Assembly: GCA_964016885.1 (NCBI GenBank)
Contig: OZ024745.1
Location: forward strand, 67,146,001-67,210,000
Reading direction: 5' to 3'
DNA from: Eledone cirrhosa
Lineage: Eukaryota
Length of the DNA: 64,000 nucleotides
Every line of letters begins with the position of its first letter. The stretch's first letter is position 1. The translations under genes were made by a program, and so were the position numbers. A model generated the notes under the pieces. The model made no database searches, was not told where the DNA came from, and saw only the letters and a list, made by a program, of their open reading frames with translations. Shown here piece after piece: positions 1,997 to 61,033 of this stretch.

Positions 1997-3302
1997 CTCT
2001 TTGAGTCTCAGTCATTGATGTTAGTTAACTGGAAAGTTTGTTGAAATGAATAGCAAGCCACTACCTGCAGCCTCAGATATTCAGGACGTATCGGAGGGTT
2101 CTTGCTGTTCCCAGCAAGCATGCCTTTTGAAGCGTTCCAAAAAGCGTGAAGGGGCCAATTTTCTTTAACCATCCCTGGAAACTTTTTGAGATAGTCCCTA
2201 GTGCGCCTATGACAACCGGGATCACTTTGACTTCATGGCAGTTCCAAATCCTTTTTACCTCCCACTTTAAGTCCTGGTATCGGTTAATTTTCTCCCTCTC
2301 CTTCTCTTGCACTCTCGTGTCGAATGGGCAGGCCACATCCACAATCAGGCACGATCTTTTTTCTTTGTCCAAAACCACCAGGTCAGGTCTATTGTGTTCC
2401 AGTTTTTTGTCCGTCTGTATCCTAAAATCCCACAGCACCTTCACCTGACTGTTCTCCATCACCGCCTCTGGCCTATGCTCATACCATTTCTCAGAATGTG
2501 GTAGATTGTTTACTTTGCACAGGTGCCAGTGGATCACCCTGCCCATCACATCGTGTCTCCAGCCCTTATAGTGGGTCTGGGCTAGGTGTTTACACTCGGA
2601 CACAATGTGAGCCACAGTCTCCTCTCTCTCTCCACAGATCCTGCACAGTGGGCTAGCCTCCTCCTTGTAGATATGGTGCTTCAACCACTTCGTTTTGAGG
2701 GCCTGCTCCTGCGCAGCCATTAGCATTCCTTCTTTAGCCTTTTTGAGGTCTCCTCTTCTCAACTAGTTCCATGTCTGTGGATCTCTAAATTCAGTTTTCT
2801 CAAAGAAGGTACTATGAAGGGATTTTCCCTTAAGGCTGCTCTTCCTCCTTGATGTTATTTCCTCCTTGGATATCCCCTGGCCTACTGTCCCCTCCTTCAG
2901 TACAGCTCTGAGCATTGGCTCCTTACTATAGGTCACGTATTTGTATAGGTTGTTTTTCTCCATCTGAACACAGTCCTCTATGCTGATAAGACCTCTTCCA
3001 CCCTCAGATCTCCTTAAGTAGAGTCTATCGACATCACTCCTCTTGTGGAACATGTTGTAGATAGTCAATAGCTTCCTAGTCTTCCTATCCATTTCTTTTT
3101 GTTCAACAACATTCCATCTCAGAATTGCCGCACTGTACCTAATAATAGACACAGCTCGGGAATTTACTGCGCTTATGGCATTTCTGCTGTTCAGATGTGA
3201 CTTCAATACGCTCCTTACTCTCCGAATGTATTCAGTTCTTAACAATTCCTTCATTTTTTTGTTCTTGATGTCATCAGCCTCCAGAACGCCCAAATACTTG
3301 TA
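1997..3302 (-). mobile_element. 5'-truncated R4/Dong-like element (RT C-terminus, CCHC knuckle, restriction-like endonuclease) with one in-frame stop at 2763-2765
   Basis: ORFs 2763-3293 and 2073-2762 are in the same frame. Motifs: YKYLG, GGRGL, CRICGEREETVAHIVSEC, RHD, RPDLVV..D..CP. (TAA)n on both sides. Confidence 0.9.
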
Positions 3303-3830: not shown

Positions 3831-4063
3831 TTATTATTATTATTATTATTATTATTATTGTTGTTGTTGAAGCCACGCTTCTTATCGCCTCCAGTCTTTT
3901 TCAACGTTTTACCTCTTTTTCAACCGTTCTAAACCTTTTATTCAAGTTTTAAATTTGATAAAAGTTTAGAAGAAGTGACCCACCTAATACAGGGGTTCAC
4001 TAGTAAATAATACGGCACCCCTTTACGGGGTGTCGTATTCGTATTTGTGTAAAAATATTTTTT

Positions 4064-6075
4064 TTGAAAAATTTCAACATGGATAACACAAAAAAGAGAG
4101 AGAGTGCTGTCAGACAACACAGAGAGAGGGAGACTTTATCAGCATATCAACAAGACAGCGTTCCAGCGGAGGTAAATATAAACAAAAATATTACAAAGGA
4201 AAAAAAGATTGTTACAGATTTAAAATTACCAAATATTTCTAACACAAACAACACCAACAATAACACCAACAACATCACCAACAACAACACCAAACATAAC
4301 AGCGGTAAAGTCGAGAACGACAATAACAAAAATAACAGCGGTAAGGTCGAGAACGACAATAACAATGACAATAACAACAGCCACAACAACAATAATAGTA
4401 GGAACAGTATCAACAAAAACAACAATAATAACAGCAGCAACAGTATCAACGAAAACAACACCAACAACTGTACCAGCGAAAAGAACAACAATGACACCGA
4501 TACCTGTAATAGCGACCTCAGCACCACCAGTAAGACCAGTAGCGGCAGCAATAGTGGTGCTGCTGAAAAAGGAACCACTTCTTTTGCAGGTGTCGCCCGA
4601 AATATCGAGACAGTGTTAGTCACAGAGGAAGAGATGGCAGTCGCAAGGGCCATGGTGACAAGGAGCGCAAATAGAGTTTCCCTGAAACCTCCACCCGATT
4701 TTTTCAAGGACCAGCAGCTACGGACGGTGTATTACCGCACCGTAAGCAAAATCTCATATCGAGTGGAGAGAGCCACGTAGGCTCAAATCCAAAAGGCCTT
4801 GGGATGCGTCTGGGCACGCAAAACCCACATCACCCGAGGCAGAAAGTACGCCACAGTAGACGTACTTTTCGCCACCCCCCAGGAAGCAAAGTCTCACTCT
4901 TTGGAAACCCTAAAGAGTGAGGAGTTAGTCTTGGTGCCCTCCTACTGCGGGCAGAAAATTGTGAGGGTCAAAGTGACCCAGGTCCCACCCGACGTGCCCA
5001 TACCTTGGCTGGCCGCGTCTGTCCTTGCTGGAATTGAAAACAGGGCGACCATGCTGCAAGTAGAAAAAATAGGGAGAGAGAACTGGTCAGGTATAGGCAT
5101 GCAAATGCTTATACAAACTGACCAGGAATGTATCGAGGCTATCCCCGATATCATAGACTTCGAGGAAGGACTCCAACTCCCTATAAGTGTAGAAGGAAGA
5201 CGGCCAAAATGTTATCTCTGTGAGTCGAAAGGTCACCTCAGGGCCTTTTGCCCGCAGAAGTCACCGAAGAGGGCCCCTCTCCTTCCAATACCTGGTCCGC
5301 TGCTACCAAGAGCAGGACAGGGAACAAACGAAGAAGCCCCTTCCACGGTGAGTAGGAGGGCAACGTCCGTAGCACCCGTACCAAGGCCACGGATAACTAA
5401 AGCAGCATCAGCAGTAGCGGCAAAACCAATAGCTACATTTGAAATAGCTACACCAGCAACAAAATTGCCGAAGAGGGCTCCACTACCACCACCTACAGCC
5501 GTGGAGCACATACCCCCCCCCCCCCCCCAGACCCCACAGAATCCGACATGGAGTTTGAGGCGGGAGTGACGTGGCAAACAGTCTGCCACAAAAAACAAAA
5601 AACAAAAGAACCCTTAGATTCACCCTCCAAAAGCGAAGGCATACAAAGAGGGGTAAAGGCAGCAAGGAAACTTGCAGCAACACCACCACAAACACCAACA
5701 ACGAAAACACAACGAGACACACACACCAATCAGTAACAAGAAGAAAACGGCAACAAAATCACCCCACCCCCCAAAAAGTACACAGCCATAAACATAGCAA
5801 AAAAAGAACTCATAAAATATATAAAGCAGCACACAGACATCACGGAAAAAAACTACTACACCCCACCAACACCAAGAACTCTCCCGACAAACATAAGCAT
5901 CATCGAAATCTCAATAGAACAGTATAAACCTTTAAAACAAAAATTCCCCAACGCAGTTGGAGACTTCAGAGGGACGGTTACCAAGAGGATATACACTGAC
6001 ATCCTCTTGGAAACACCCATGACCAGAGAAAGGGACGGTTCTACTGTCCCTTCACCACACGAACAAGGTAAGTGA
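4064..6075 (+). pseudogene. Tx1-like ORF1 (Asn-rich N-terminus, CCHC knuckle), disrupted
   Basis: VEGRRPKCYLCESKGHLRAFCP; stop at 4780 and a frameshift near the poly-C at ~5520. Confidence 0.8.
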
Positions 6076-6107
6076 CCCTTTCTCATTTGCCCCGTTTCTC
6101 ATCCAAC

Positions 6108-8880
6108 ATGGCTGTACTCAGAATAGGCAGTATAAATGCACGTGGCCTGGGGTCATCTTGGAAGCAGGGTCACCTGCTCAATGACCTCAGGTCACTAAAC
6201 ATAGATGTGGTGGCCATCAGTGAAACTAGAATCTCCGAGGCACGGGTCTTCGAACCGATCTTCGGCGGGCGGCTACGATGTATACGCATCACCCAGCCGT
6301 CCAGCATCGGGGGAGGGGTTGCCGTCCTTTTTCGGAAAGGCTTGGATCTCGCGATACGGGCCATCTTCCTGGACCCAGAAGGTAAGTCGGTGGTGCTGGA
6401 CGTGACCGGCAGCAAAGGCAATGCTGTTAGGCTAGTAGCCGTCTACGCCCCAACAGGGGCATGACGGCCAGATTTCTTCAGACGTCTAGAGACCTTTCTT
6501 GGAACGTCCCGCTCTTTAGTGTTAGTGGGCGACTGGAACGGTATCTTGGATGCACGCTGGGATCGTGTGGGGCTAGTGGATAGGGGAGGGGGGGGGTGCA
6601 AGAGCCTCACCAACCTGCTCAGACGTTTTGAACTGTCTGACAGGTATCGACTGGATCACCCGAATGTGCCAATGTGGACATGGACAAACCGCATCGGGTC
6701 ATCCATATCGTATCTAGATAGGGTATTCTGCAGGGAACTAGATAAGGCTAGTATAAGTTGTCCACAATTTAAAATAGTCGACTACACAGACCACAAATTT
6801 GTGATCTGTGAGATCGACATAGACAGACTTCATAGACAAGGGCCTGGTTACTGGAAGCTGAACGCGTCTTTCCAGGCGCGTTCAGCTTCCAGTAACCGGA
6901 TTAGCCTATTAGTTAAGCGGGCGTTGACGGGAGCGGACGTCAACAACAGGTGGTGGTTCGCCCTGAAAAGGGCAATTAAAGTAGAGTCGATTAGATTTAG
7001 CAAAGGAGTAGTGATAGAGGAAAATAGAGTAGAGGGAGAGCTAGTCAGAAAGCTAGAAGAAGCGTTTAGGACAGGCATCGCAACCTACGTGCTTGTGCGA
7101 GATTGGCACTCGACCAATTCTTCAACTCGACCAATGCGTTGTCAGAGCTAGAGCGCGTGCTCTGAAACACGAGGGGACAAAAGCCGTCCAATGGGCCTGG
7201 GTGGCAGAGGCGCGATAGAGTCGACCATTGGTACCTGGCGGCGGTCGTCGAGGCAGCCGGTTTCCGGCCCGTTTTCAGGCGTTGGATCGCAGCAATGTAC
7301 AGCGACATCTGCTCAGTTGTGAGGGTGAACGGTCACCTGTCGCAGCCGTTCAGCATCATGCGCTCAGTCCGCCAGGGTTGTCCCCTCTCGTCCCTCTTGT
7401 ATGTATTGGCTCTCGAGCCGTTACTGCACAAACTGGGGGCGATGAGGGGCGTCCCACGCGAACTAGGATGCGGGAGATTCGAGTCGGCTTACGCTGACTA
7501 CGTCACCGTGGTGGTGTCGAGCACCAGACACGTCCAGATTCTCGGCACCGCTCTCAAGGAATACGAAGCGGTGACAGGAGTAAAGATAAACCAGGAAAAG
7601 TCGGTGGGCTTGCATCTACGCACCTGGAGAAGGGCAAGTCCATGCCGTCCGACAGCGTCGTGGGTCGTTGGACGGACGGACCGGTTAAATTACTCGGGGT
7701 CTGGTTCGGACCGGACCTCCAGATGGAGAAAAACTGGAACGAGGTGACGAGCAGGGTGGCCTCCCACACCCAGAAATGGGCTGAGAGGAAGCTGTCCATG
7801 AAAGGCCGGGCGGAAGTGGCGAATGCGTACATTGCATCCGTCATCTGCTACCGCCTCACCGTCGTCCCTTGCTCCAGCCCAACTCTCACCAAAATGGAGC
7901 GCCTCCTCTTCCGCTTTTTGTGGAAGGGACGCGCTCCCTTGGTCAGACGATCTATCTGCTGTCAACACCCGTTGCATGGAGGACTGGGCATGCCATGGCT
8001 GATGATGCGCAAACTTGTGCTGAGGCTGCGACATCTCTGGTGCTTCCGTGACGGTGAACAGGTGTGGTCGCCGTTCGCCAGGCACGTTTTCCCACAGATC
8101 GTCTCCTTGACGGAGCTGCAGTCCTGGGTCAGAAAAAGACCGCGGGATAGCGCTTGGAAACTGGAATGTCTCCAGGCGCTCACTGCCCTCTCCTAGTTGG
8201 GCACCAGTATCGGTGGAACATCCACCTCGGCGTTCTATAGAGGACTAGTGGAGGGGAAGAGCGACGACATTCTCGGAGAGATCCTGGGCGTCGAAGAAGA
8301 TCAGCTGTTTGCTCTCTTCCGGAGAACTTTCAGCCCGGGGCCTATGGATAACTTCCAAAAATCCCTGGCCTGGCAGTGCTACCGGGAAGCGCTGCCGGTT
8401 CGAGTAAGCTCTACAGGCACGGAAGTGCCGTCAGCCGAGCCTGTCCGAGATGCGCGCATAGCGACGAAACCGTTGTGTACGCACTCGTTCAGTGCCCGAG
8501 CATTGCTGACTTGTGGAGCTATGTCGAACAGTTGCTGTCGCGTGTGGGACTGATCCGGTTGTCGACTGAGTCCATTGTGCAGATGGTCTCGCCGTCTTCC
8601 TTCGAGGAGGAAGGGCAGGCGGTTTTCATATGCCTGGTGGCCATGGCGAAAGAGATTGTGTGATGGACAAGGTTAAAAGGATTAAAGACAAACACTTTCC
8701 TCTTCGGCGAATCCTTAATTAACTTTTTCAAGTTTCACTTGAAGGGGAAAATCAGGGTGGAGAGGCAAGTGCTGCTTTCTAGCAAGTTTGTTGAAAGGTG
8801 GGTGAATGTAGCGAGAATGGTCCGAGTGAACGGGACCACTCTGAATATACGTCTGTCGTTTGAGAGATGGAAAAATTGAG
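6108..8880 (+). pseudogene. Tx1-like ORF2 (APE endonuclease, RT, C-terminal CCHC) with multiple lesions and a ~0.7-kb deletion near 7215
   Basis: SINARGL, GDWNG, YLDR, TDHK, GYWKLN, RQGCPLS, AYADY, GGLG, CPRC..ETVVYALVQC. Confidence 0.88.
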
Positions 8881-11432: not shown

Positions 11433-11498
<66 letters not shown>

Positions 11499-11499
<1 letters not shown>

Positions 11500-11731
11500 G
11501 GAAAAGAGTCAGGACGCCAACGGCTGAGTTCCAGCCGTTTCGAGAGCTAGATCCGAACTAAACCAGTAATATATGAATACTACTGGTTTAGTTCAGATCT
11601 AGATGTCGAAACGGCTGGAGCTCAGCCGTCGGGGTCCTGACTCTTTTCCTATTACCCACTCTACTACCCTTAAAAATTGAGTACTCTGGTGCGTTATGGT
11701 CCACCTGGTTCCTTACCAGACTTTCTTTGTT
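11499..11731 (+). mobile_element. Hairpin+tail element, family A, in (TA)n
   Basis: Arms ~11499-11568 / 11582-11650 plus ~80-nt tail; GAAACGGCTGGAGCTCAGCCGTC half-hammerhead. Confidence 0.8.
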
Positions 11732-13190: not shown

Positions 13191-13247
<57 letters not shown>

Positions 13248-13249
<2 letters not shown>

Positions 13250-13435
13250 CGAAGGAAATGTGGTAAGGAACCAGGTGGACCATAACGCACCAAAGTACTC
13301 AATACTTGAGGTAGTAGAGTGGGTATAGGAACCAGTAAGACCCCGACAGCTGAGCTCAAGCCGTTTCGACGGCTAATTCTGTCCAGAATTAGCCGTCGAA
13401 ACGGCTTGAGCTCAGCTGTCGGGGTCTTACTGGTT

Positions 13436-13440
<5 letters not shown>
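13248..13440 (-). mobile_element. Hairpin+tail element, family A
   Basis: Perfect arms 13325-13380 / 13383-13440; tail 13248-13324; (TA)n flanks. Confidence 0.85.
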
Positions 13441-13480
<40 letters not shown>

Positions 13481-13491
13481 TATATAATATA

Positions 13492-13530
<39 letters not shown>

Positions 13531-16460: not shown

Positions 16461-18453
16461 TATTTCTTTATTTACCATAAAGGCATAAAAAGAAGGGACA
16501 AATACAAATGGGGAGTTTACATACAATCGAGTAAAAAGGGTATAAAATGAAAATAATCGAAAACAACCTCAAAAGGGAGGGGACGTGATGGGGGTTGCAC
16601 ACACCCCCGAAAAAGTGTGCAATCCTTTGCCCGGGGAACACATGGAGAAGGTGCTCCCCTCTCCTTCACTTCTTTACCTACAGGATGGTATACAGAGAAG
16701 GCCCATTTACACGAGCCATTCTCGCCACTATCACCCACCTTTCATAAAACTGCCTGTGGCCAAGCACCTCTCTCTCCATTCTTATCCTTCTTCCGAAGTG
16801 ATATCGGAAGAAGTAGACCAGACTATGGCCAGAGAGGAAGTTGCCTGACCTCAGACCTTTCAATCGTGTCCACCAAACAACCTCTTTCAACATGGCTATT
16901 ACGCACAGAAACACCGCCTTTGCTTCCTTTGTGAAGAGGGGAGGCGGTTTGATTGTCATCACGGACTCGGCGGTCAATTGAATCGGCGCCACCCGTGACA
17001 GCAGTCGTTCGGCGTAGCCCCACAGATCAGCCACGCCCGGACATTGCACCAATGCGTGCGCAACGGTTTCTTCGTGACGCACGCATCTAGGGCAAATCTT
17101 TTTCGAGGGATCCCTGTCCGGGCGCCCGTGTCTGTAGAGCCTCTCTCGAACGGGTAGAGCCCCCCGGTAGCACTGCCAGGCTAGTGACTTCTGGAAGTTG
17201 TCCATTGGTCCCGGGCCGAAAGTCCTACCGAACAGGCTGGCCAGTTCGTCTTCTTCCATGTCCAGCGACTCTCCAAGGGTGTCATCGCCCCTGCTAGCCA
17301 CCAGCCCTCTATAGAATGATGAGGTGGATTCTCCACCGATGGCCTGGCCCGCTTGCCAGAGAGCCCTGAGCGCCTGAGCACACTCAGTGTGCCAGTCTCC
17401 CAGTTTTCCGGATCTTTGCTTGACCCAGGACTGCAGCTCGGTGAGCGAGACGAGTCTCGGAAAGGCTCGTTTCACGAACGGAGCCCACACCGGTTGACCA
17501 GTGAGGAATACCTGTAGGTGCCGTAGCCTTAATGCGTGCCTACGCATCATCAACCACGGCATCCCCAGTCCTCCTTTCGAAGGTTGTTGGCAGCAGATGG
17601 ATCTTCTCACCATAGGAGGGCGCTTCTTCCAAAGAAATTGGAAGAGCATGCGTTCCATGGTGGTGAGTGTTTCCTTAGGGCAAGGCACAACAGTCAGGCG
17701 TTAGTAAGTGACGGACGCTATGTAAATGTTCGCCACCTCCGCTCGGCCTTTTAGGGACAGCTTACACTTGGCCCATTTCTGGGTTAGTGCAAACACCTTG
17801 TTCGTAACCTCGTCCCAGTTCTTTTCCACCTGGAGGTCCGGTCCAAACCAGACCCCAAGCAACTTTACCGGGCCCTCCGTCCAGTGTCCGACGACACCGT
17901 CGGGAGGCATCGGTCTGCCTCTCCACGTTCCGAGTTGCAGCCCGATGGATTTTTCCCGGTTCAGTTTCGCTCCTGACAACCTTTCGTAATCCTCCAGTAA
18001 GGTACCGATCGCCTCGATCTCCGAGTCGGTCGATACCATTACTGTTACGTCATCGGCGTAGGCCGACACCGCTTTGCTCAATCCCGGTTCCAGGGGGATA
18101 CCCTGCAACAACTCTAACTTCCTCAGTAAAGGCTCGAGAGTCAATACGTACAGAAGGGAGGAGAGAGGGCACCCCTGTCGAATGGATCGTGTGATTTCGA
18201 ACGGCTTCGAAAGGTAGCCGTTCACATTGATCCTAGAACAGATGTGGTTGCTATGTAAGGCAGTGATCCAGCCTCTGAAAACAGGACCGAACCCAGCCGC
18301 CGCTAGCACCGCATCCAGGTAACCATGGTCGACCCTATCGAAGGCCTTAGACTGATCCAAGTTGATCAGGGCCCCACCGAAGCCGAGTTTGTTGCCAACC
18401 CTCTCTATGATGTATCGCATGAGGTGGAGGTTATCGTGAATGGACCTGGATGG
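16461..18453 (-). mobile_element. 5'-truncated Tx1-like element in (GATA)n
   Basis: LDQSKAFDRV, RQGCPLS, AYADD and C-terminal CCHC in ORFs 17701-18420 and 16678-17688. Confidence 0.9.
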
Positions 18454-18529
<76 letters not shown>

Positions 18530-18792
18530 TGTTTCTTTTATTTGCCACCAGGGCATCAAAAGTGGGACAAGTACAATGGGGGGAGTTTACAAAACAAGGC
18601 GTCCTCAATAAGGAGGAGGCAATAACAATATATAAAAATAAAATAAAATATAACAAAAAATAAAATTTATAACAAAGTCCTCAATAGAGAGGAGGCGCCT
18701 TGGGGAGTCGCACACACCCCGAAAAAAGTGTGCAACCCTTCTCCTCAGGGGCACAGAGAAGGGGTGCTCCCTTGGTATTTCATCTTCCTCAC

Positions 18793-21700
18793 CTATAGTC
18801 TGATGTAGAGTGAAGGCCCATTCACACGGGCCATTCTCGCCACTTTCACCCATCTTTCATAGAAACGGCTGGGGTGCAGCACCTCTCTCTCCATCCTGAT
18901 CCTTCTTCCGAAATGATATCGGAAGAAACGGACCAGTTGTTGGCCAGAAAGAAAGGTGCCTGACCTCAGTCCTTTCAGACGCGTCCACCATACAACCTCT
19001 TTCGCCATGGCTATTACGCACAGAAACACCGCCTCTGCTTCATCTTTGAAGGGGGAGGCGGCTTGATCATTACAATAGACTCGGTGGTCAACCGGATCGG
19101 TCCCACCCTTGACAGCAGTTGTTCGACATAGCCCCACAGATTGGCTACGCTCGAGCAGTGTACCAATGCGTGTGCAACGGTTTCCTCGTCGCACACGCAT
19201 CTGGGACAGATCTTTTTGGCGGGGTCCCTACCCGGGCGCCCGTGTCTGTAGAGCCTTTCTCGAACGGGTAAAGCTCCTCGGTAGCACTGCCAGGCCAGGG
19301 ACTTCTGGAAGTTGTCCATAGGTCCCGGGCTGAATGTCCTACCGAACAGGCTGGCCAGTTCGTCCTCCTCCATGTCTAGGGCTTCTCCGAGGGCGTCGTC
19401 GCACCTGCTGCGTACCAGCCCTCTATAGAATGTTGCGGTGGAGTCTCCACTGATAACCGGATCCGCCTGCCAGAGGGCGGTGAGCGCCTGGGCACACTCA
19501 GTGTGCCAGGCGCCCAGTTTTCTCGGTCTTTGCTTGACCCAGGATTGCAGCTCGGTGAGTGAGACGAGTCTGGGAAAGGTTCGTCTCACAAACGAGGCCC
19601 ACACCGGTTGTCCGGTGAGGAATACGTAGAGGTGCCGTAGCCTTAATGCGTGTTTACGCATCATTAGCCACGGCATCCCCAGCCCTCCTTTCGAAGGGTG
19701 TTGACAGCAGATGGATCTCCTCACCATAGGAGCCCGCTTCTTCCAAAGGAATTGGAAGAGCGCGCGCTCCATCTTGGTGAGGGTTTCCCTTGGGCAGGGC
19801 ACTGCGGTCAGGCGGTAGTAGATGACGGACGCTATATAAGTGTTCGCCACCTCCGCCCGACCTTTCAGGGATAGTTTGCAACTGGCCCACTTCTGGGTCA
19901 GTGCAAACACCCTGTTCGTAACCTCCGCCCAGTTTTTCTCCACCTGGAGGTCCGGTCCGAACCAGACCCCGAGCAACTTCACCGGGCCCTCCGTCCAGCG
20001 TCCGACGACGCCATCGGAGGGCATCGGTCTGCCCCTCCACGTGCCGAGTTGCAAACCGATCGACTTGTCCCGGTTCAGCTTAGCCCCTGTGAACTTTTCG
20101 TACTCCTCCAGTAAGGTGCCGACCGCCTCGATTTCGGAGGCCGTCGACACCATTACTGTCACATCATCGGCGTAGGCTGACACCGCTTTCCGCAATCCCG
20201 GTTCCAAAGGGATGCCCTGCAACAACTCCAACTTCCGCAGTAGTGGCTCGAGAGTCAACACATACAGAAGGGAGGAGAGAGGGCACCCTTGTCGGATGGA
20301 CCGCGCGATTTTGAACGGCTCCGAGAGGTAGCCGTTCACCTTGACCCTAGAGCAGATACGGCTGCTGTGCATAGCAGTGATCCAGCCCCTGAAAACGGGT
20401 TCGAAGCCTGCCGCCGCTAGCACCGCATCCAGGTAACCATGGTCGACCCTATCGAACGCCTTAGATTGATCCAAGTTGATCAGAGCCCCACCAAAGCCGG
20501 GTTCGTTCCCAACCCTCTCTATGATGTATCGCATGAGGTGGAGGTTGTCATGGATGGACCTGGACGGGATAGCGCATGTCTGCGCATCTCCCACCAGGTT
20601 GCCCACGACAAGCGCCAACCTCTTTGCTAGCACCTTGGCCAAAATCTGTAACTCTGTATTTAGCAGAGTTATGGGCCTGAAGTTACTTATTTCGTCCCCC
20701 TTGTTCTCGTCCTTCCTCACTAGCGTGACTACGCCCTTGGTCACGGTACAGGGAATTCTCCCGTTCTGTTGCCAGTTGCAGTAGACCGCCTCGAGGAGAT
20801 CGGGGAACAAGTCCGGCATAGCTAGATATAATTCGTAAGGAAGACCATCGAGACCCGGGGATTTGCGTTTGCCGCATTGGCTCAGCACGTCCTCTATCTC
20901 AGCGGCCGAAATCGGCTCCTCGCAGGACTTCGCCTCCCTGTCCGAGAGGCGCGGCAGGCCGTCGAGGTATGGACCGAAGTCCACGTTCCCAACCGGCTCC
21001 CCGCCCCTCCCGAACAGTCGGGCAAAGTGCCTTTGAAAGGCCTCACACATCTGCTTAGGCTCAAGAATCGCCCGTCCATCCAGGTCTCGCAAAGACCGGA
21101 TGGTGGATTTAGTTCCACTGTTGGTCTCTGTCACGCGGGCCCAGCTAACAGCTTTGGTCCCCTCGTTCCCTAGAGCACGTATTTTACTTCGGACAACGCA
21201 ACCTTCGTGCTTCGCGTCGAAAAACTGGCTCAAAGCCGTTCTCGACGCTAGCACTCTGGCCACGTCGCCGCTTCTAATTGCCTCTTCTACTCTATCTATT
21301 AGCTCCCTTTCCTTCCTATTCCTATCCGCAGCTAGAACCTTACTAAATTCAATCGAGACTACTCTAATCTCTCTCTTTAGAGATACCCACCACCTGCTGT
21401 TGACGATCGCTCCAGTCAACCGTTCCTTAACTAACGTACTAATCCGATTCCTGTAGGCTCTACTTGCCGGCAAGGACAAGTTGAGCTTCCAGTAACCGGG
21501 GCCCTGTCTATGCGTTCTATCAAGGTTGACCATGCAGGTCACCAACTTGTGGTCTGAATAGCCAGCCATGAGCATTTCTGGACAGCTTAAAATGTCCCTG
21601 TCCTTATTTCTAACTAAAAATCTATCTAGGTACGATCTAGATGATCCGCTGCGATTTGACCAAGACCAGGTTGGCACCGTCGGAAAATCTAGTCGAAATC

Positions 21701-22229
21701 TATCGGCCAGGTCAAATCGGCCGAGTAACCCCTTGAGGCTGTTGCACCCCTCTCTATCGGGACATGCCCCTGCATAGTCCCAACGTGCATCCAGGATACC
21801 ATTCCAATCCCCCACTAAAAGCAGGGAACGGGACGTCCTTAGAAAAGACTCCAGACGCTGGAAAAAGTCGGGCCGCTCTGTCCCAAAAGGGGCATATGCG
21901 GCTATCAGCCTAAAGGCTCTACCTTCACCACTGCCAAGGTCCAGCACCACCAGTCGACCCCCTGGGTCCAAGTGAACTATCTGTGTTGCAAGGCCCATAT
22001 GTTTTTGCAGCAGAACGACAACCCCACCCCCACCTCCGGGCTGACAGAGAGATGCGTGCATCTCAAAGTCGTCAAAGGTGAGGGCTAGCTGTCGCATGCT
22101 GCTGATCCGGGCCTCGCAGATAACCATCACATTTATAGATTGTGACCTGAGGTCATTTAGAAGCATTGCTTGCTTCCAAGACGAGCCCAGGCCACGCGCA
22201 TTTAGACACCCTACTCTTAGCACAGCCAT
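18793..22229 (-). CDS. Tx1-like ORF2: APE endonuclease, reverse transcriptase, CCHC; single 1-bp deletion at the G-run 19051-19055
   Basis: 1079-aa ORF with LNARGL, GDWNG, SDHK, KSPGLDG, FRPITLLN, DQSKAFD, QGCPLS and YADD. The sister copy at 34389 has 6 G and an intact frame to the stop. Confidence 0.92.
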
Positions 22230-24096
22230 GTTGGTGGTAAAGAGAAAAGGCACTTACCTCTCTGCGTCCCGGGAAACGGGCCGCTCAATTTCCATGCTGG
22301 TTGGGGATGGGTTGTTGGGTGGGGTGGTGGTTTGTGGAAGTGAAGGGGCATCGGTGTGTTGTGGGGTTGGGGTGTTTGTCGTTGAGTGGGTGTCTGGGTG
22401 GGGTGGGGGGTGAAATTTTTTAGGAGGACGCGGTTGATTGGTTTGGCGCAGGGGGGGCCCACGTCCTCCGTGAAATTTATTTTCAGTGTTTTGTACAAGT
22501 GCATTGGGACTTTTATCATTTTCAAATGAGGTAGTCCCACAGCAGTTATAAAGTTTGGCCCTTCAGTTTGGACCGAAGGGTTTGCTGAAATTGTTTTCCG
22601 TAATTCTTTGTTGTCTGTGTTCATGTATGTATATTGTAAGGTCTTTTTTTGTGTAGCAGTTAGTGTTGTGTGACAGGGAGGGGTGGTTTGTGTGTAGTTT
22701 GTGTTCTCTTGGGGGGGTTAAAGTTAACATGTGTGTCTGTGGTGCGTCTCCTCTTCTTTCTTTTTACTTGTTGGAAGGGATCTTTTTCGTCTTGCGACGA
22801 AAGAGGTTCGTCTTCCTTGTTGGGTGGGAGGGGTATGTTTTCTGGTAGTGTTTGCGGTGTGCGTGTTTTTGTATTTGTTTTGGGTGGGGAGGGATTGGGT
22901 GGGACAGTATTCTGTGTTATTTTTTCACGTGTTTGTTGTTGTTGTTGTTGTGGTGGTGGTGGTGGTGGGGTTGTTGGTTTTTGTTGTTGTTGTGGTTGTT
23001 TTTGTTGTTGTAGTTGGGGTGGTGTTGGTGTTGGTAGCAGTGTTTTTTTCTGTGTGAGCTGGGGACAGGCAGCCCTCAGGTGACCTCTATTGCCACAGAG
23101 GTAACAGGAGGGACGCCTACCCTCCACAATAATGTTGAGGTGGGTACGGTCATCCAGCATGACGCGCTCAGGGATTTGGGCGATGCGTTCTGGCCTTATT
23201 TGGGTCAGAACTTCGAGGCTCGTTCCACTGAACGCGTCGCCGGATGCCTTCCCTATTGAAATGAGGTTGTCCTCGTCTAAATTGAGGAAACCGGTTAGTA
23301 ACCACCAGTAGTTTATGTTTGGGGTGATGGTGGTTATCCATATCCTTTGGGTTTTTTTACCCATGTAGGTGGGGAAGAAGGTGTAGTGTGTGGACCGAAT
23401 TGGCGACACAGAGTATTCTTTTGCCGCCAATTCGTCTTTCATCAATATGGATAAACTCCCATAGAGTTTATCCTTTTGTATAAAAGTGATGTCTCTCATC
23501 GCGTCTTTCAAGACTAACTGAATTTCCGCTTGAGATGGTTGCGCTAGTTTCTTTGTTTTATTTAAAATTGTTCGGAATACGACAGTTCGTAATTCCGTCT
23601 GTCTTTTTAGCTCCGGAGGTGAATGTATAGAAAACGAACCGTTTTCGCCAAAAGACACATATTTCTTGGCTTTTTCCAGCATTTCTTTTGCTTTTGAAAT
23701 ATCTTCCAGCACATAAGCGACTGATAATTTAGCCGTTTGTGCAAAAGATATTTTGTTTTCGTTTTGGATATTAGTATTGTTTTGTTTCTCGTCGTTTGAG
23801 TTGTTTTCATCTTTGTTGTTGTTGTTGTCTTTCTCGTTTCGTGTGTGGATACTTGTGATGTTTGTGTTGTTGTTGTTTTTGTTGTCTTTATTGTTGCTGT
23901 TGTTGTCGTTGTTGTTGTTGTTTTCAAATTCTTGTGTAGTTGTGGCTACATCTAGTGGTCGGTCAACAGGTGAAGACAATTCTTCCTCTCTCTGACCTCT
24001 GCCTTTGGCATCTGCTGCTGTGACAGTGGCAGGGGGAAGCTGTGAGTATGACTTCCCCTTTCCTTCTTTGATTGATGGTGAAGATGCTTCAGCCAT
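22217..24096 (-). CDS. Tx1-like ORF1 (gag-like, CCHC knuckle), probable frameshift near 22660-22700
   Basis: VEGRRPSCYLCGNRGHLRAACP; ORFs 22660-24105 and 22217-22624. Confidence 0.8.
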
Positions 24097-24319
24097 TTTT
24101 CTCAAAATAGGGTTTTTCGAAGTTTTTCGAAAGATAAAATGTTCACAATACTATTTCGCCCAAAGGCGCAGAATATTTTGAGAGACCGACCAGATCAAAA
24201 TTTGACCTGGCAGTCCCTCTACAAAATGGTACAAAAATGAAAGTTTACAGTTTACAATTTCCGTATGAATTTAAACAAAAACTTACCGAGCGAGCTCAGC
24301 ACATGTGTCCATCGTAGAG

Positions 24320-29779: not shown

Positions 29780-29826
<47 letters not shown>

Positions 29827-29830
<4 letters not shown>

Positions 29831-30161
29831 AAGGAAAAAAGATGAAATCGAAAATGCAACTGGAGTTTTATTTTTTTTTTTATATTTATTTGGTTCCTTT
29901 ACCGGTTTCGCAGTTCTTCTGCTTTTCAAAAGTAGAGTTGAGATGGAGGGTCTGTGGTTTTTCCACAGACATTCCATCTCAACTCTACTTTTGAAAAGCA
30001 GAAGAATTGCGAAATCAGTAAAGGAACCAAATAAATATATATATATTTTTTTTAAATAAGACTCCAGTTGCATTTTCGATTTCATTTTTTTTCCTTATAC
30101 TTTCACTCGTGTAAGACACCTCGGTTATTTTTCCTTTTGTAAAAGAAACCTCACTTTCTAA
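29827..30161 (+). mobile_element. Hairpin+tail element (~130-bp arms) with degenerate hammerhead
   Basis: Arms 29827-29958 / 29964-30100; gcag..ctgc-GAAACCGGTA; ~60-nt tail. Confidence 0.75.
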
Positions 30162-30182
30162 TATATATATATATATATTTAT

Positions 30183-30374
30183 ATAGGAAAAATTATGACC
30201 CCGACGGCAGAGCTCAAGCTGTTTCGACGGCTATTTATGTCCAGAAATAACCGTCGAAACGGCTTGAGCTCTGCCGTCGGAGTCATACTTTTTCCTTTTA
30301 CCCACTCTACCACACTAAGTGTTGAGTACTTTGGTGCGTTATGGTCCATTTGGTTCCTTACCACAATTCCTTCG

Positions 30375-30376
<2 letters not shown>
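30183..30376 (+). mobile_element. Hairpin+tail element, family A
   Basis: Arms fold at ~30241; tail matches the other copies. Confidence 0.85.
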
Positions 30377-40600: not shown

Positions 40601-40688
40601 TGTGTGTGTAAGGTGAGTGGTGTTGGGGGTTGCTACGGTTAAAAAAGGTTCTCAATACGTTGGTAGAGTAAAGGTATGTATATTTCAT

Positions 40689-40764
40689 ATAGAAATGAGT
40701 TCTACAGAACTAAAACTGTTTCATTCGAATGAAACAGTTCTAGACCTGTAAAAGTCATCTCTCT
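40689..40764. mobile_element. Small degenerate hairpin element, family B (as 53981 and 45425)
   Basis: actgtttcattc/gaatgaaacagt fold-back. Confidence 0.65.
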
Positions 40765-40780
40765 CTCTATATATATATAT

Positions 40781-41235: not shown

Positions 41236-41321
41236 GTCCTTGAAATATGTATAATGAAATAAATATGGTTTATAAATATAGTTTCCATTTGTTAATATCG
41301 ATCGTATATATATATGTATAT

Positions 41322-42039
41322 ATACAAATATAAATTAGCGAGAATCGTATTTCAGCTCAGGAATTAACGAAAATCAACCTCCGAGATGTGTGGCAAGCAC
41401 TCGATGATTCATTTGAATCAGAGCTAAAACATACGTTAAGGGCCAAACACACTGAGATGATGGTTAAACAAATCATCCGCACACCCTAAACAAACGACCA
41501 AGTAATTCGGGTCAAACAATAAAAATATATGTGATTGAAAATTTACCCGGACCCTGGACGGTTGGTAAAATCCATTATTTGGGTTTCTGCGACTCCATAA
41601 ATCAGGTACTGTCCGCCTACATAAAGAATGTTAGGCTTCTGGTAGGATGATTGAACAAGGAAGCCGTGTTATCAACGCGTTTTTGCTCCAAATGCTATAC
41701 ATAAGTGTGACTATTACTGACCCCACGTGGAGTTCAGCAAGGGAGGCAACACTTATATTAGGCGAATGAATTCAGTTGTGTATAATATTGCAAGAATGCA
41801 AAATATCACAAATCGAATAAAGCTCTCGACAGAATGGTTAAAGATAACAAAGCTATTCAACAGTCAATAGAAGCAACTAAAAAAAATCAATAAAATTAAC
41901 TGCTCAATAGCTAGACTCTGGAGATTAATACAAATATAAATTAGCGAGAATCGTATTTCAGCTCAGGAATTAACGAAAATCAACCTCCGAGATGTGTGGC
42001 AAGCGCTCGATGATTCATATGAATCAGAGCTACAACATA
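41322..42039. mobile_element. Non-coding element with ~110-bp terminal direct repeats in (TA)n
   Basis: 41322-41433 matches 41928-42039. Confidence 0.7.
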
Positions 42040-47483: not shown

Positions 47484-48469
47484 CAGGAGAACATGATATG
47501 AAGGCTAAAAAACACTTGTGGATAGTGCAGTTTTAAATCAACATATGAAAAGTGGTTTTAGATTGATGTGTGATATTGGGAAAAATATTTTATTTAGAGA
47601 GGGGGGGTGGAAAGGATGAAAAAGGGGAGGAGATGAGAGGGAGAGATGGGTGATAGAGAGAAAGAAAGAGATAGTTTTTATAACTGACAGGAGATATATT
47701 GTTTTACATAGAGAGGTTGAAAACCGTTGGAAGATAATGTATAAATTAAAAATTTGAAATTAACGAAGGGAGGATATGTGCGAGGAAAGAATATTTTATT
47801 TATGGAGGGGGGGGGAGGAAAAAAGGGGGAGGAGATGAGAGTGAAGGTGGAGAGGGAGAGATGGGTGATAGAGAGAAAGAGATAGTTTTTATAACTGAGA
47901 AAAAGATATATTGTTTTACATAAATTAAAGGAATTTGAAAATTAACGAAGGGAATTTATGTATGAAGATACAGAGAAAAAATAATAATTGTGGATGAATA
48001 TTCTAACGTCAAAAAAAGTGTGTGTTGATAAGTATTGTGGCAATTTCAAAATTAACGAAGAGAAAAATTATTAAGGTTTGTGTGTAGAAGGATTTGAGAA
48101 AAATAATGTGAAGTTAAAGTTGATAATATATGCGAATAAAGAGTTAATATGTATTAAGAATGAGTTCGTTGATGGGGAGAAAAAAAAAAAATAAAATAAA
48201 ATAAATTAAGGATGAAATTGAGATTAAAAAGATTTATGATAGAGAGAAAAAATAATAATGATTGCGGATGAATATTCTAACGTCAAAAAAATAAATGTAT
48301 ATGTTATGAAGGATTTTACAAGGTGAAAATAGAATGAGGGTAATGAGTAAACAAGTGTTATAGAGTGTATAATGGCCTTTAAAGTAAGGTGGGAAGATGG
48401 GTATATTTTAAAGAGGTGTATGTATATGTGCCTTTGAGAAAAGATTCTAAATTGATAAAGAATTGAATA

Positions 48470-49812
48470 TTAACTGTATACTTTGTGAAAAGTCCTATGG
48501 AATTTATGGAGGCAGATAGAAAATAAATCTGTACGTCTATTTATTATAGAATCTAGGTTAGAGATAATGGTAAATTTTTCATTTAGGCAGAGATTACAGA
48601 TTTTAGATAGAGAGCTGTTCAAGTATGAGGATGCAGAAGAAACCTTCTTCCAAAAGATGGTATATTTAATGTTTTTGTCTTTTAAGGACCATATGAGTTC
48701 TGAGAGAGCAGTGTTGGTTCTTTTAAGTTTGTATTTGAAAGATGAATGATGATTATAGAGACGAGCTTTAAAAGAGGTGGAAGTGGAGCCAAAATAGGTG
48801 AAGGAATTGGTGCTAGTTATAATTTTACATTCATAAATTAAGTTTTTATCGAGACAATGGTTGTTGAGAGGACATTTATTTTTAATGCGGCAGTTGCAAT
48901 TAGAGAGATTATTAATGAGTGACCTAGTGTTATCTATAGAAGGAATTGGATTGGAGAAGTTGTTTGCGATAGGAATAATAGGAATAATAGTTTCTTGATT
49001 TAGAGTTGGATTATGAACATTTAGCGAAGTTGTGTTTGACGTTGTATTTGTGTTTACAGAAGTTAGCCTAGGGTTTACAATGACGTCGGGAGTACTATTA
49101 CTGTTATTATGAAACTCAATGTTGGAAGGAAGAGATTTAGTATTTAGTATTTTATTGTTGTGTTTAGAGATGATGTTGGAAATATTGGAGGATGTAGAAT
49201 AAGAACATTTGATGGTGTGTTTGTTAAATATTTTACTATAGATATGTGAGGGAGGGAAGCATTTATTTAAGGCACTAAAAAATAATTTAGGAATATTGTT
49301 ATTAATAGAGATGGAGAAAGGAGCATTATACCAGATTACGTTTTTGTATCTAGGTCTTTTATTAAAATTATTGGAATGATCATGATTAATTATTCTACTG
49401 TAAGTTTTTCTAGAATTTGTTTCTTTACTATATTTGATTTTATCTGGATAGCCGGCTTTAGAAAGTGCGTTATTATAGTAATTGGCGTTAGCATCAAAGA
49501 TGTTTTTATTAGAGGATATGTTAGATATTCTTTTTCCAATATTACTAACTATAGCATTCTTGATATTGGTAGGATGGTTAGATTTAAAGTTAACATAATT
49601 TAGGTTCTCATTGTTTTTATGGTAAGGGTAATATAGGCCAGTGTCAAGATTAAGAGATACATCCAAGAAATTAGCTAGTTTGATACTATTATCAAATTCA
49701 ATTTTTAGGTTATGTTGGTTAAAGAGATTACGTATATTGTTCTTAATAATATTAAGGTTAACTATATTGCAATTTAGGATAGTAAAGAGTCCATCGTCAC
49801 GATAAATTCCAC
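48470..49812 (-). CDS. 5'-truncated PLE RT/GIY-YIG ORF (left arm)
   Basis: IYRDDG, FLDV, SNHP, CNCR..CPL..C, LIY..YFG..FKARLYNH, CNLCLNEK..C.H. Confidence 0.85.
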
Positions 49813-51389
49813 TCAATAATGCTCTATCTTTCGCACTTAAATATTCTGACATCACCACAGATGAACTTCACATCATCCTCACCGCACGTAAAACCATCCT
49901 AGAGTTCAACAACGAATATTGGACCAGAGCCGATACCTCTAACAACTTCGATATCACAATGGGAGCATCCGATTCATCCCAATTGACTGATTTAATTGGT
50001 ATCTTCATTTTGAACTCTTTGAGTCGGAAAATTCCTCAACTTCGCGGTGGAATTTGTCGTGACGATGGACTCTTTACTATCCTAAATTGCAATATAGTTA
50101 ACCTTAATATTATTAAGAACAATATACGTAATCTCTTTAACCAACATAACCTAAAAATTGAATTTGATAATAGTATCAAACTAGCTAATTTCTTGGATGT
50201 ATCTCTTAATCTTGACACTGGCCTATATTACCCTTACCATAAAAACAATGAGAACCTAAATTATGTTAACTTTAAATCTAACCATCCTACCAATATCAAG
50301 AATGCTATAGTTAGTAATATTGGAAAAAGAATATCTAACATATCCTCTAATAAAAACATCTTTGATGCTAACGCCAATTACTATAATAACGCACTTTCTA
50401 AAGCCGGCTATCCAGATAAAATCAAATATAGTAAAGAAACAAATTCTAGAAAAACTTACAGTAGAATAATTAATCGTGATCATTCCAATAATTTTAATAA
50501 AAGACCTAGATACAAAAACGTAATCTGGTATAATGCTCCTTTCTCCATCTCTATTAATAACAATATTCCTAAATTATTTTTTAGTGCCTTAAATAAATGC
50601 TTCCCTCCCTCACATATCTATAGTAAAATATTTAACAAACACACCATCAAATGTTCTTATTCTACATCCTCCAATATTTCCAACATCATCTCTAAACACA
50701 ACAATAAAATACTAAATACTAAATCTCTTCCTTCCAACATTGAGTTTCATAATAACAGTAATAGTACTCCCGACGTCATTGTAAACCCTAGGCTAACTTC
50801 TGTAAACACAAATACAACGTCAAACACAACTTCGCTAAATGTTCATAATCCAACTCTAAATCAAGAAACTATTATTCCTATTATTCCTATCGCAAACAAC
50901 TTCTCCAATCCAATTCCTTCTATAGATAACACTAGGTCACTCATTAATAATCTCTCTAATTGCAACTGCCGCATTAAAAATAAATGTCCTCTCAACAACC
51001 ATTGTCTCGATAAAAACTTAATTTATGAATGTAAAATTATAACTAGCACCAATTCCTTCACCTATTTTGGCTCCACTTCCACCTCTTTTAAAGCTCGTCT
51101 CTATAATCATCATTCATCTTTCAAATACAAACTTAAAAGAACCAACACTGCTCTCTCAGAACTCATATGGTCCTTAAAAGACAAAAACATTAAATATACC
51201 ATCTTTTGGAAGAAGGTTTCTTCTGCATCCTCATACTTGAACAGCTCTCTATCTAAAATCTATAATCTCTGCCTAAATGAAAAATTTACCATTATCTCTA
51301 ACCTAGATTCTATAATAAATAGACGTACAGATTTATTTTCTATCTGCCTCCATAAATTCCATAGGACTTTTCACAAAGTATACAGTTAA
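49812..51389 (+). CDS. 5'-truncated PLE RT/GIY-YIG ORF (right arm)
   Basis: Open frame from 49812 through FDITMGASDS; CRDDG variant at the catalytic motif. Confidence 0.85.
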   Translation, partial: LNNALSFALKYSDITTDELHIILTARKTILEFNNEYWTRADTSNNFDITMGASDSSQLTDLIGIFILNSLSRKIPQLRGGICRDDGLFTILNCNIVNLNIIKNNIRNLFNQHNLKIEFDNSIKLANFLDVSLNLDTGLYYPYHKNNENLNYVNFKSNHPTNIKNAIVSNIGKRISNISSNKNIFDANANYYNNALSKAGYPDKIKYSKETNSRKTYSRIINRDHSNNFNKRPRYKNVIWYNAPFSISINNNIPKLFFSALNKCFPPSHIYSKIFNKHTIKCSYSTSSNISNIISKHNNKILNTKSLPSNIEFHNNSNSTPDVIVNPRLTSVNTNTTSNTTSLNVHNPTLNQETIIPIIPIANNFSNPIPSIDNTRSLINNLSNCNCRIKNKCPLNNHCLDKNLIYECKIITSTNSFTYFGSTSTSFKARLYNHHSSFKYKLKRTNTALSELIWSLKDKNIKYTIFWKKVSSASSYLNSSLSKIYNLCLNEKFTIISNLDSIINRRTDLFSICLHKFHRTFHKVYS

Positions 51390-52379
51390 TATTCAATTCT
51401 TTATCAATTTAGAATCTTTTCTCAAAGGCACATATACATACACCTCTTTAAAATATACCCATCTTCCCACCTTACTTTAAAGGCCATTATACACTCTATA
51501 ACACTAGTTTACTCATTACCCTCATTCTATCTTCACCTTGTAAAATCCTTCATAACATATACATTTATTTTTTTGACGTTAGAATATTCATCCGCAATCA
51601 TTATTATTTTTTCTCTCTATCATAAATCTTTTTAATCTCAATTTCATCCTTAATTTATTTTATTTTATTTTTTTTTTTTTCTCCCCATCAACGAACTCAT
51701 TCTTAATACATATTAACTCTTTATTCGCATATATTATCAACTTTAACTTCACATTATTTTTCTCAAATCCTTCTACACACAAACCTTAATAATTTTTCTC
51801 TTCGTTAATTTTGAAATTGCCACAATACTTATCAACACACACTTTTTTTGACGTTAGAATATTCATCCACAATTATTATTTTTTCTCTCTATCTTCATAC
51901 ATAAATTCCCTTCGTTAATTTTCAAATTCCTTTAATTTATGTAAAACAATATATCTTTTTCTCAGTTATAAAAACTATCTCTTTCTCTCTATCACCCATC
52001 TCTCCCTCTCCACCTTCACTCTCATCTCCTCCCCCTTTTTTCATCCTCCCCCCCCCTCCATAAATAAAATATTCTTTCCTCGCACATATCCTCCCTTCGT
52101 TAATTTCAAATTTTTAATTTATACATTATCTTCCAACGGTTTTCAACCTCTCTATGTAAAACAATATATCTCCTGTCAGTTATAAAAACTATCTCTTTCT
52201 TTCTCTCTATCACCCATCTCTCCCTCTCATCTCCTCCCCTTTTTCATCCTTTCCACCCCCCCTCTCTAAATAAAATATTTTTCCCAATATCACACATCAA
52301 TCTAAAACCACTTTTCATATGTTGATTTAAAACTGCACTATCCACAAGTGTTTTTTAGCCTTCATATCATGTTCTCCTG

Positions 52380-52900: not shown

Positions 52901-52921
52901 TATATATATATATATATATAT

Positions 52922-53129
52922 ATAGGAACGAGTAGGACCCCGACGGCTGAGCTCAAGCCGTTTCGACGGCTAATTCTGGACTAAAAGATTTTAGTCCAGA
53001 ATTATCCGTCGAAACGGCTTGAACTCAGCCGTCGGGGTCCTACTCGTTCCTATTACCCACTCTACTACCCTAGGTATTGAGTACTTTGGTGCGTTATGGT
53101 CCATCTGGTTCCTTACCACATTTCCTTCG

Positions 53130-53131
<2 letters not shown>
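52922..53131 (+). mobile_element. Hairpin+tail element, family A
   Basis: Fold at ~52988; same tail. Confidence 0.85.
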
Positions 53132-60532: not shown

Positions 60533-60583
<51 letters not shown>

Positions 60584-60585
<2 letters not shown>

Positions 60586-60846
60586 AAATGTTAGATATCG
60601 CCGTATTTTGGCTAAAGAAATTAAAGAAATTATTTAGCCTGATAGTGGGGTTAAGAACCCTCGGAGAAATGGAAAAAGATGAGTATTGACGTACCATGTA
60701 GGTCAATACTCATCTTTTTCCATTTCTCCGAGGGTTCTTAACCCCACTATCAGGCTAAATAATTTCTTTAATTTCTTTAGCCAAAATACGGCGATATCTA
60801 ACATTTCTAATAATTTCAAATCAACTCGCTGTTTTGAAAATATTCT

Positions 60847-60850
<4 letters not shown>
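60584..60850 (+). mobile_element. Hairpin+tail element (~105-bp arms); relative at 15460-15575
   Basis: Perfect arms 60584-60690 / 60702-60808. Confidence 0.82.
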
Positions 60851-60876
<26 letters not shown>

Positions 60877-60881
<5 letters not shown>

Positions 60882-61033
60882 AAAGAGTTAGGACCCAGAC
60901 GGCTGAGATCCGGCCGTTTTAGCTGTCGAAACGAACGGAGCTCGGCCGTTGTGGTCCTGCCTCTTTTCCTATTAAGTATCGAGTACTCTGGTGCATTATG
61001 GTTCACCTGGTTCTTTACCACACTTTCTTTGCT
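60877..61033 (+). mobile_element. Hairpin+tail element, family A (diverged)
   Basis: gtcgaaacg..gagctcggccgt; tail gagtactctggtgcattatggttcacctgg. Confidence 0.7.

Follow-up and report, generated by a model that had tools for sequence, protein, structure and literature searches.

Five short inverted insertions in the window (the whole 64,000-nt stretch of DNA analysed here), which belong to family A, are the ends of a Penelope-like element (PLE) with a reverse transcriptase (RT) and a GIY-YIG endonuclease at the C terminus. Judging from their sequence, the two arms of such an insertion are probably separate cDNAs, primed at both cut ends of a (TA)n target, that were joined after running off what is likely the capped 5' end of the RNA of the element. 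This reading builds on the observed identity of the element, two fixed outer ends, a sharp inner boundary and its promoter-like context, an asymmetry between the arms, and a coupling of arm lengths.

Family A insertions and their parent element

In our numbering of the element, the GAAA core of the hammerhead begins at +1 with its G, negative numbers lie upstream, and ribozyme cleavage is predicted between +23 and +24. We found nine matches to the hammerhead 3' half motif in the window (at most three mismatches) compared to none expected from 100 shuffles. These matches lie in five insertions, all of which are flanked by (TA)n runs (Table 1), and the window is without any match to Rfam. The fold centres of the five copies lie ~5-32 nt upstream of the GAAA core, and the 5' core is present in none of them (0/5). 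This confirms what an earlier sequence-only reading had observed, namely a half-hammerhead motif, centres upstream of it and no CTGANGA in the five copies. It had also described the five centres as differing, but those at 13381 and 30241 occupy nearly the same relative position. A family A insertion is not a simple palindrome, since one arm stops at +43 while the other adds a ~78-nt tail that extends to +121.

Table 1. Family A features in the window, with the focal insertion at 13248-13440 divided into its parts
Feature	Position	Strand	Remarks
Tailed arm, focal copy	13248..13381	-	+121 to about -14; extent from long copies and by eye; contains stem II 3' strand, GAAA core, stem III, cleavage site, stem I 3' strand and tail
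Sub-segment of focal tailed arm	13248..13324	-	
Hammerhead 3' half, tailed arm	13345..13367	-	predicted cleavage between 13345 and 13344
Tail-less inverted arm, focal copy	13381..13440	+	-17 to +43; outer end is the (TA)n run
Hammerhead 3' half, tail-less arm	13398..13420	+	predicted cleavage between 13420 and 13421
Arm junction, focal copy	13381	.	one base common to both arms
(TA)n target run, left	13192..13247	.	left limit approximate
(TA)n target run, right	13440..13530	.	right limit approximate
Family A copy, divergent subfamily	11496..11731	+	arms to -31 and -32, beyond the usual boundary
Family A copy	30182..30376	+	tailed arm to -17, inverted arm to about -11
Family A copy	52921..53131	+	both arms to about -21, 4 extra bases in between
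Diverged family A copy	60877..61032	+	centre near -5, internal deletion in tail; read by eye

Across the genome, many families share the two-arm layout, each with its own tail length. In the window, short two-arm insertions of families C, B and D, together with one that has no recognisable ribozyme, occupy 29826-30094, 40680-40780, 41241-41330 and 60580-60850 and are often nested in each other's (TA)n runs. A different PLE at 48180-51679, with an ORF 33% identical to that of family A, has two 1,633-nt arms that are 100% complementary and 234 nt apart, a long inverted layout that is apparently young. The window also holds non-LTR retrotransposon ORFs at 16678-24150 (minus), 4007-8196 (plus) and 2073-3302 (minus), which comprise an endonuclease-RT of 1,079 aa that has an ORF1 upstream, a decayed relative, and fragments of an RT from another type of LINE.

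Upstream of the long family A copies, we found an ORF with an RT and a GIY-YIG domain at its C terminus, as in EN+ PLEs. RVT_1, HTH_animal and GIY-YIG occur in some members of its Atlas neighbours (0.94-0.98), and searches of Pfam and PDB with the ORF returned nothing informative. Locus L240 represents the whole unit: two direct copies of the ribozyme lie at a spacing of 3,522 nt and are preceded by an inverted arm, the tail continues into the ORF region, and the reading frame is broken. L240 thereby displays the pLTR arrangement of PLEs (partial tandem or inverted, with an optional tail), as do the inverted arms that alignment recovered in 77 of 100 consecutive copies sampled by their tails. 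Of these 77 inverted arms, 52 end exactly at +43 and 2 at the tail end, and most of the others, from subfamilies that lack a close reference, seem by eye to stop at +43 as well. Family A has a unit of 3.5 kb and tens of thousands of copies. In the 3.0-Gb genome, exact patterns matched 35,133 times for the tail, 23,267 times for the 3' half and 1,418 times for the 5' core, a ratio that is rough since the three patterns cover different subfamilies. On the minus strand of L240, at the upstream ribozyme (about 4450-4700), the main frame opens after a conserved stop near +60 with no obvious ATG; an ATG near -80, upstream of the inferred RNA start, opens a short frame.

A cysteine cluster precedes the endonuclease in L234, L235 and L240, and the flanks are (TA)n. 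This linker and target fit Neptune-type PLEs as set out in the available part of PMC8557442, with a linker motif that is common to Nematis. Like the EN+ Neptune and Nematis elements in that excerpt, family A combines an RT and C-terminal GIY-YIG with a cysteine-rich linker, a pLTR hammerhead, (TA)n targets, an inverted 5'-truncated copy adjoining the 5' end, and a one-sided tail. The likeness is one of features, and the family A tail is longer (~78 nt compared to 30-40). In addition, family A occurs mostly as tiny products of two arms whose inner boundary is fixed, a form that the same excerpt does not describe for Neptune or Nematis. We also considered a non-LTR retrozyme, which would have hammerheads in head-to-tail tandem, but the short copies carry half a ribozyme and occur as scattered pairs in head-to-head orientation.

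The hammerhead ribozyme in long copies

The sequence-only reading had identified the motif as a hammerhead 3' half, and long copies indeed carry a full type I hammerhead. It had further expected CTGANGA and a complementary stem I in longer copies, and had named the lack of CTGANGA there as grounds for rejection. Stem I is present and pairs with the G-run past the cleavage site, whereas CTGANGA never occurs; taken literally, this is the outcome named as grounds for rejection, yet a known covariant core stands there instead. CTGANGA is absent from the five window copies and from the long copies alike, the latter having a U3-A8 or C3·A8 core that lies 66 nt upstream. Among 90 distinct long arms from a core-permissive search, a set enriched for one subfamily, 51 have C3·A8, 39 have U3-A8 and none has the canonical core, and core position 7 takes all four bases. 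The 3-8 Watson-Crick pair is kept in the U3-A8 subfamilies and mismatched (C3·A8) in one branch. This branch, to which L140 also belongs, makes up 69 of the 100 matches listed, which are long copies of its subfamily group. Since the branch is abundant, a ribozyme that is probably impaired did not stop its amplification. The canonical-core pattern gave 27 matches genome-wide compared to 1 in the control; by eye, the 27 are junction coincidences or other families, and none is a native family A 5' half.

Twelve natural copies follow the three-stem type I layout, with 91% of cells paired compared to 31-52% in slid controls; since the structure was derived from the same 12 sequences, this comparison is biased in its favour. 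Compensatory changes occur at three stem II pairs, all from one divergent subfamily (12 copies). When four copies were folded, the hammerhead was the lowest-energy fold in one, and the other three bury the core in a competing hairpin.

The U3-A8 core is a published PLE variant according to the accessible portion of PMC4209133, which also notes opposite-strand motif pairs 100-700 bp apart for PLE hammerheads. There, the hammerheads of Schistosoma Cercyon PLEs resemble those of family A in their U3-A8 covariation, long stem II and palindromic loop III. Family A differs from Cercyon, as presented in that portion, in its stable stem III, its ~55-nt stem II that holds a putative promoter, and its abundant branch with a mismatched C3·A8 core.

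Inner ends of the arms and the putative transcription start

The five window copies were picked for a motif in both arms, which biases them toward upstream centres; the tail-anchored sample confirms that the pile-up of ends is real. We scored 235 family A arms at loci not selected for length (L001-L057, L138-L167 and L228-L247 were omitted as long or selected) and found 28 inner ends at 0 to -10, 178 at -11 to -22, 10 at -23 to -89, and 19 past -90. Family A inner ends form a cliff rather than a gradual truncation, with an end rate per nucleotide of 0.118 at -11 to -22 compared to 0.007 at -23 to -89. The reference copies for these calls were curated by hand, and most of the sampled loci lie within the initial 45 Mb of a single contig. 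In short-read contigs, depth falls ~15-fold just past -24, and loose (TA)n ends occur at +43 and at the tail end. Since the short-read run may be the assembly's own sample, the fall in depth argues against an assembly artefact only. At L112 (about 1360-1500), sequence like the element's own -700 region is joined straight to -18, either by loss of internal sequence or by a jump between templates at this boundary.

The sequence-only reading had asked whether fold centres are uniformly distributed; they are far from uniform and, in family A, lie inside stem II, but other families speak against stem II as the cause. In family B, which has a canonical core at -19, 71 of the 89 arms at risk end between -16 and -26, with the caveat that 45 of 135 arms were scored 0-5 nt from the core and many of these look like subfamilies without a reference. 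In family C (U3-A8 core at -20), 56 of 82 arms end between -52 and -63 and only 2 of 84 between -21 and -51, a gap that spans the upstream flank of the ribozyme. In family D, whose core is at -33, a start near -125 was read, by eye only, for several truncated arms. These boundaries, at about -25, -62 and -125, are unrelated to stem II, so the boundary has no fixed relation to it. The idea that ribozyme structure dictates the insertion architecture is thus not supported, because the ends in families B, C and D pile up upstream of the whole ribozyme.

Based on its sequence context, the inner boundary is promoter-like and is likely the capped 5' start of the element's RNA. The boundary falls on an initiator-type A; in long copies of families B and C, this A follows a pyrimidine, and by eye a TATA box lies ~30 nt upstream of it. 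Family A has an initiator-type motif and, in most subfamilies, a weaker, degenerate TATA-like element at -29 to -31, which is absent in one subfamily (L065). By eye, family D showed no fixed spacing between TATA and boundary. All of these matches were judged by eye against the initiator and TATA consensus. The inner end of the focal tail-less arm lies 1 nt inside the putative start, the A at -18.

Of 33 unambiguous arms, 20 have an extra, non-templated G in front of the boundary A, compared to 22 of 78 controls ending further inside (p = 0.0014), in a sample-based test in which the arms of one insertion are not independent. By family, the extra G occurs in 12/19 vs 14/33 arms in A (p = 0.12), 6/8 vs 2/30 in B, and 2/6 vs 6/15 in C; the excess is therefore carried by B, while A alone is not significant and C shows none. 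Loci from the canonical-core search were left out of this test since they had been selected for a G-containing motif. In L1, such an extra G is read as copying of the cap, according to the sections available of PMC11702581 and PMC9341517. Several junctions contain A- or T-runs, and most ends lie 1-8 nt inside the boundary, so that trimming must be assumed.

It is unlikely that twin priming met a common end that was not capped, owing to a host protein bound there, to a cut from processing or to a 3' splice acceptor instead of a transcription start. Such an end would suit the pyrimidine-A-G found at all three boundaries, the pyrimidine-rich stretch upstream in A and B, and the Penelope intron near its start that appears in the accessible part of PMC2377424. 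However, many arms retain the A and G that splicing would remove, there is no constant upstream exon, family C is without a pyrimidine tract, and a start site is indicated by the TATA spacing in B and C together with the extra G. Nor do ends pile up at the ribozyme cleavage site: of 100 tailed arms, 2 end at +25, 2 at +23 and none at +24, and we accordingly rejected ribozyme cleavage as what sets the ends.

Two arms and their proposed origin

To compare the arms of one insertion, we used the 77 tail-anchored copies with an aligned inverted arm. The tail-less arm is longer by at least 10 nt in 24 of these and the tailed arm in 5 (24 vs 5, p = 0.0005), although a few of the 24 are small internal deletions or alignment breaks in the tailed arm; the remaining 48 have arms within 10 nt of each other and are individually compatible with fold-back. 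Insertions in which the tail-less arm outreaches the tailed arm are not what fold-back of one cDNA can give, since a tail-primed cDNA cannot copy sequence that it never reached. In L231 and L235, the tail-less arm extends beyond -3,200 while the tailed arm ends near -110 to -180, and insertions with two tail-less or two tailed arms also exist. Arm lengths are coupled, as a partner also passes the boundary in 17 of 19 insertions with one arm past -90 (not picked as pairs, counted by hand), compared to about 2 if the arms were independent. The arms of one insertion also match in subfamily, with a median difference of 1 base compared to 4 in shuffled pairs. Coupled lengths and subfamily match fit a pair of cDNAs copied from a single repeat of one RNA.

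These findings bear on the mechanism favoured by the sequence-only reading, in which the cDNA stalls or snaps back in stem II and primes itself; in our version of it, RT stalls in the long stem II and the cDNA would copy itself as far as a TA microhomology at +43. Self-priming has been proposed for PLE palindromes (PMC3846280, in the part available), family A ends do lie within the extended stem II, and 48 of 77 insertions are near-symmetric. Moreover, 27 insertions share at least one junction base, 16 of them exactly one, and the arms differ unusually often at -26/-29, near the hairpin apex. We nevertheless consider this mechanism very improbable. The inverted arm outreaches the tailed arm by 24 to 5 and by up to 3 kb in long insertions, the boundaries of families B, C and D lie upstream of the entire ribozyme, few ends are found at or past the apex where they would be needed (10/235 at -23 to -89), and three of the four folded copies favour a fold other than the hammerhead.

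Inverted repeats are prone to deletion, and some junctions recur, the 13381 type several times. This raises the question of whether symmetric palindromes later lost arm DNA or short copies copied each other, with the pile-up reflecting few founders or a fixed RT run length. Yet junctions are mostly unique with varying inserted bases, the loss would be directional (24 against 5), every subfamily and family repeats the pattern in its own sequence, and arm pairs differ far less than shuffled ones. A fixed run length is ruled out because arms primed 78 nt apart stop together. We regard this explanation as improbable.

Under the twin-priming reading, a promoter in the upstream pLTR would start the RNA inside stem II, at the A at -18 and, in some subfamilies, also near -22. 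The RNA 5' end would then have only the 3' half of the ribozyme while the 3' end would have all of it. The RNP would cut both (TA)n strands, and RT would be primed at +43 and +121, sites that would be present in both the 5' and 3' repeats of the RNA. About nine copies in ten would stem from priming on the 5' repeat, where the cDNAs would run off at lengths of about 61 and 139 nt, and priming on the 3' repeat would give long arms that end at scattered positions. The RT primed at the tail probably follows the one primed at +43 along the same RNA, which would leave the tailed arm as the shorter one. The cDNA 3' ends would lose 0-8 nt before end-joining or a template jump links them, yielding the order (TA)n, short arm, junction, tailed arm, (TA)n. 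The family A junction would fall in stem II because the promoter is located there.

Several parts of this scheme have precedents. In vitro, the RT of a Poseidon PLE starts at two internal sites flanking the tail, both target strands are extended, and a dimer is predicted (PMC11167929). Family A resembles this green anole element (PAc) in the two internal RT starts bounding the tail, the extension of both strands and the AT-rich target; PAc likewise has a ribozyme at the pLTR-ORF junction, which is dispensable for insertion. Unlike in PAc, the first RT site of family A has TA microhomology with the target, and the PAc paper draws no link from its two sites either to inverted copies or to cDNAs running off the 5' end of the RNA. 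Penelope of Adineta vaga shares head-to-head inverted pLTRs, palindromic junctions, an optional tail, and TATA/initiator-like pLTR motifs, as far as the available part of PMC3846280 goes. The published proposal for PLE inverted copies, found in that same part, invokes self-priming on an antisense RNA template, whereas the asymmetry and boundary of family A favour two sense-templated cDNAs. L1 twin priming is similar in that a second cDNA from the other target end gives an inversion and an extra G marks complete copying to the cap; in the portions consulted of PMC11702581 and PMC9341517, however, the two L1 cDNAs copy neighbouring stretches of RNA and the second site is variable, while family A sites are fixed and its cDNAs overlap fully.

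The element class, the inverted copy, the one-sided tail, the U3-A8 core, the pLTR promoter motifs and initiation at two sites were already known, and how PLEs make inverted copies is stated as open in the accessible text of PMC8557442. In the open literature, we found no paper tying PLE inverted junctions to transcription start, twin priming or strong-stop DNA, and the available portions of PMC13282606, PMC12602865 and bioRxiv 10.64898/2026.07.22.740005 do not address a link between junction and start. Relative to this literature, what is new here is the proposal that the junction marks the transcription start, and twin run-off as the source of inverted copies. More tentatively, and with slightly less than even confidence, we suggest that PLEs may integrate by programmed twin priming on one RNA, the commonest product here being paired retrovirus-like strong-stop cDNAs joined at the cap. 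If so, palindrome centres in genomes would map PLE transcription starts, and one rule would yield both the inverted pLTR and the one-sided tail. With its promoter nested in stem II, family A would have a 5' ribozyme copy that cannot cut, and cleavage of the 3' copy would remove the sites that long insertions need. The twin-priming reading would also explain the tens of thousands of tiny hairpin insertions in this genome, which repeat annotators could mistake for MITEs or SINEs.

Among 20 long-insertion pairs, the arms differ at -26 in 10 and at -29 in 7, compared to about 0.03 per site elsewhere; pairs differing at these positions include L142, L146, L234, L239, L240, L242 and L244. The two positions are mirror images within a small near-palindrome next to the apex of stem II, which suggests local template switching, either in RT or at a later stage in DNA.
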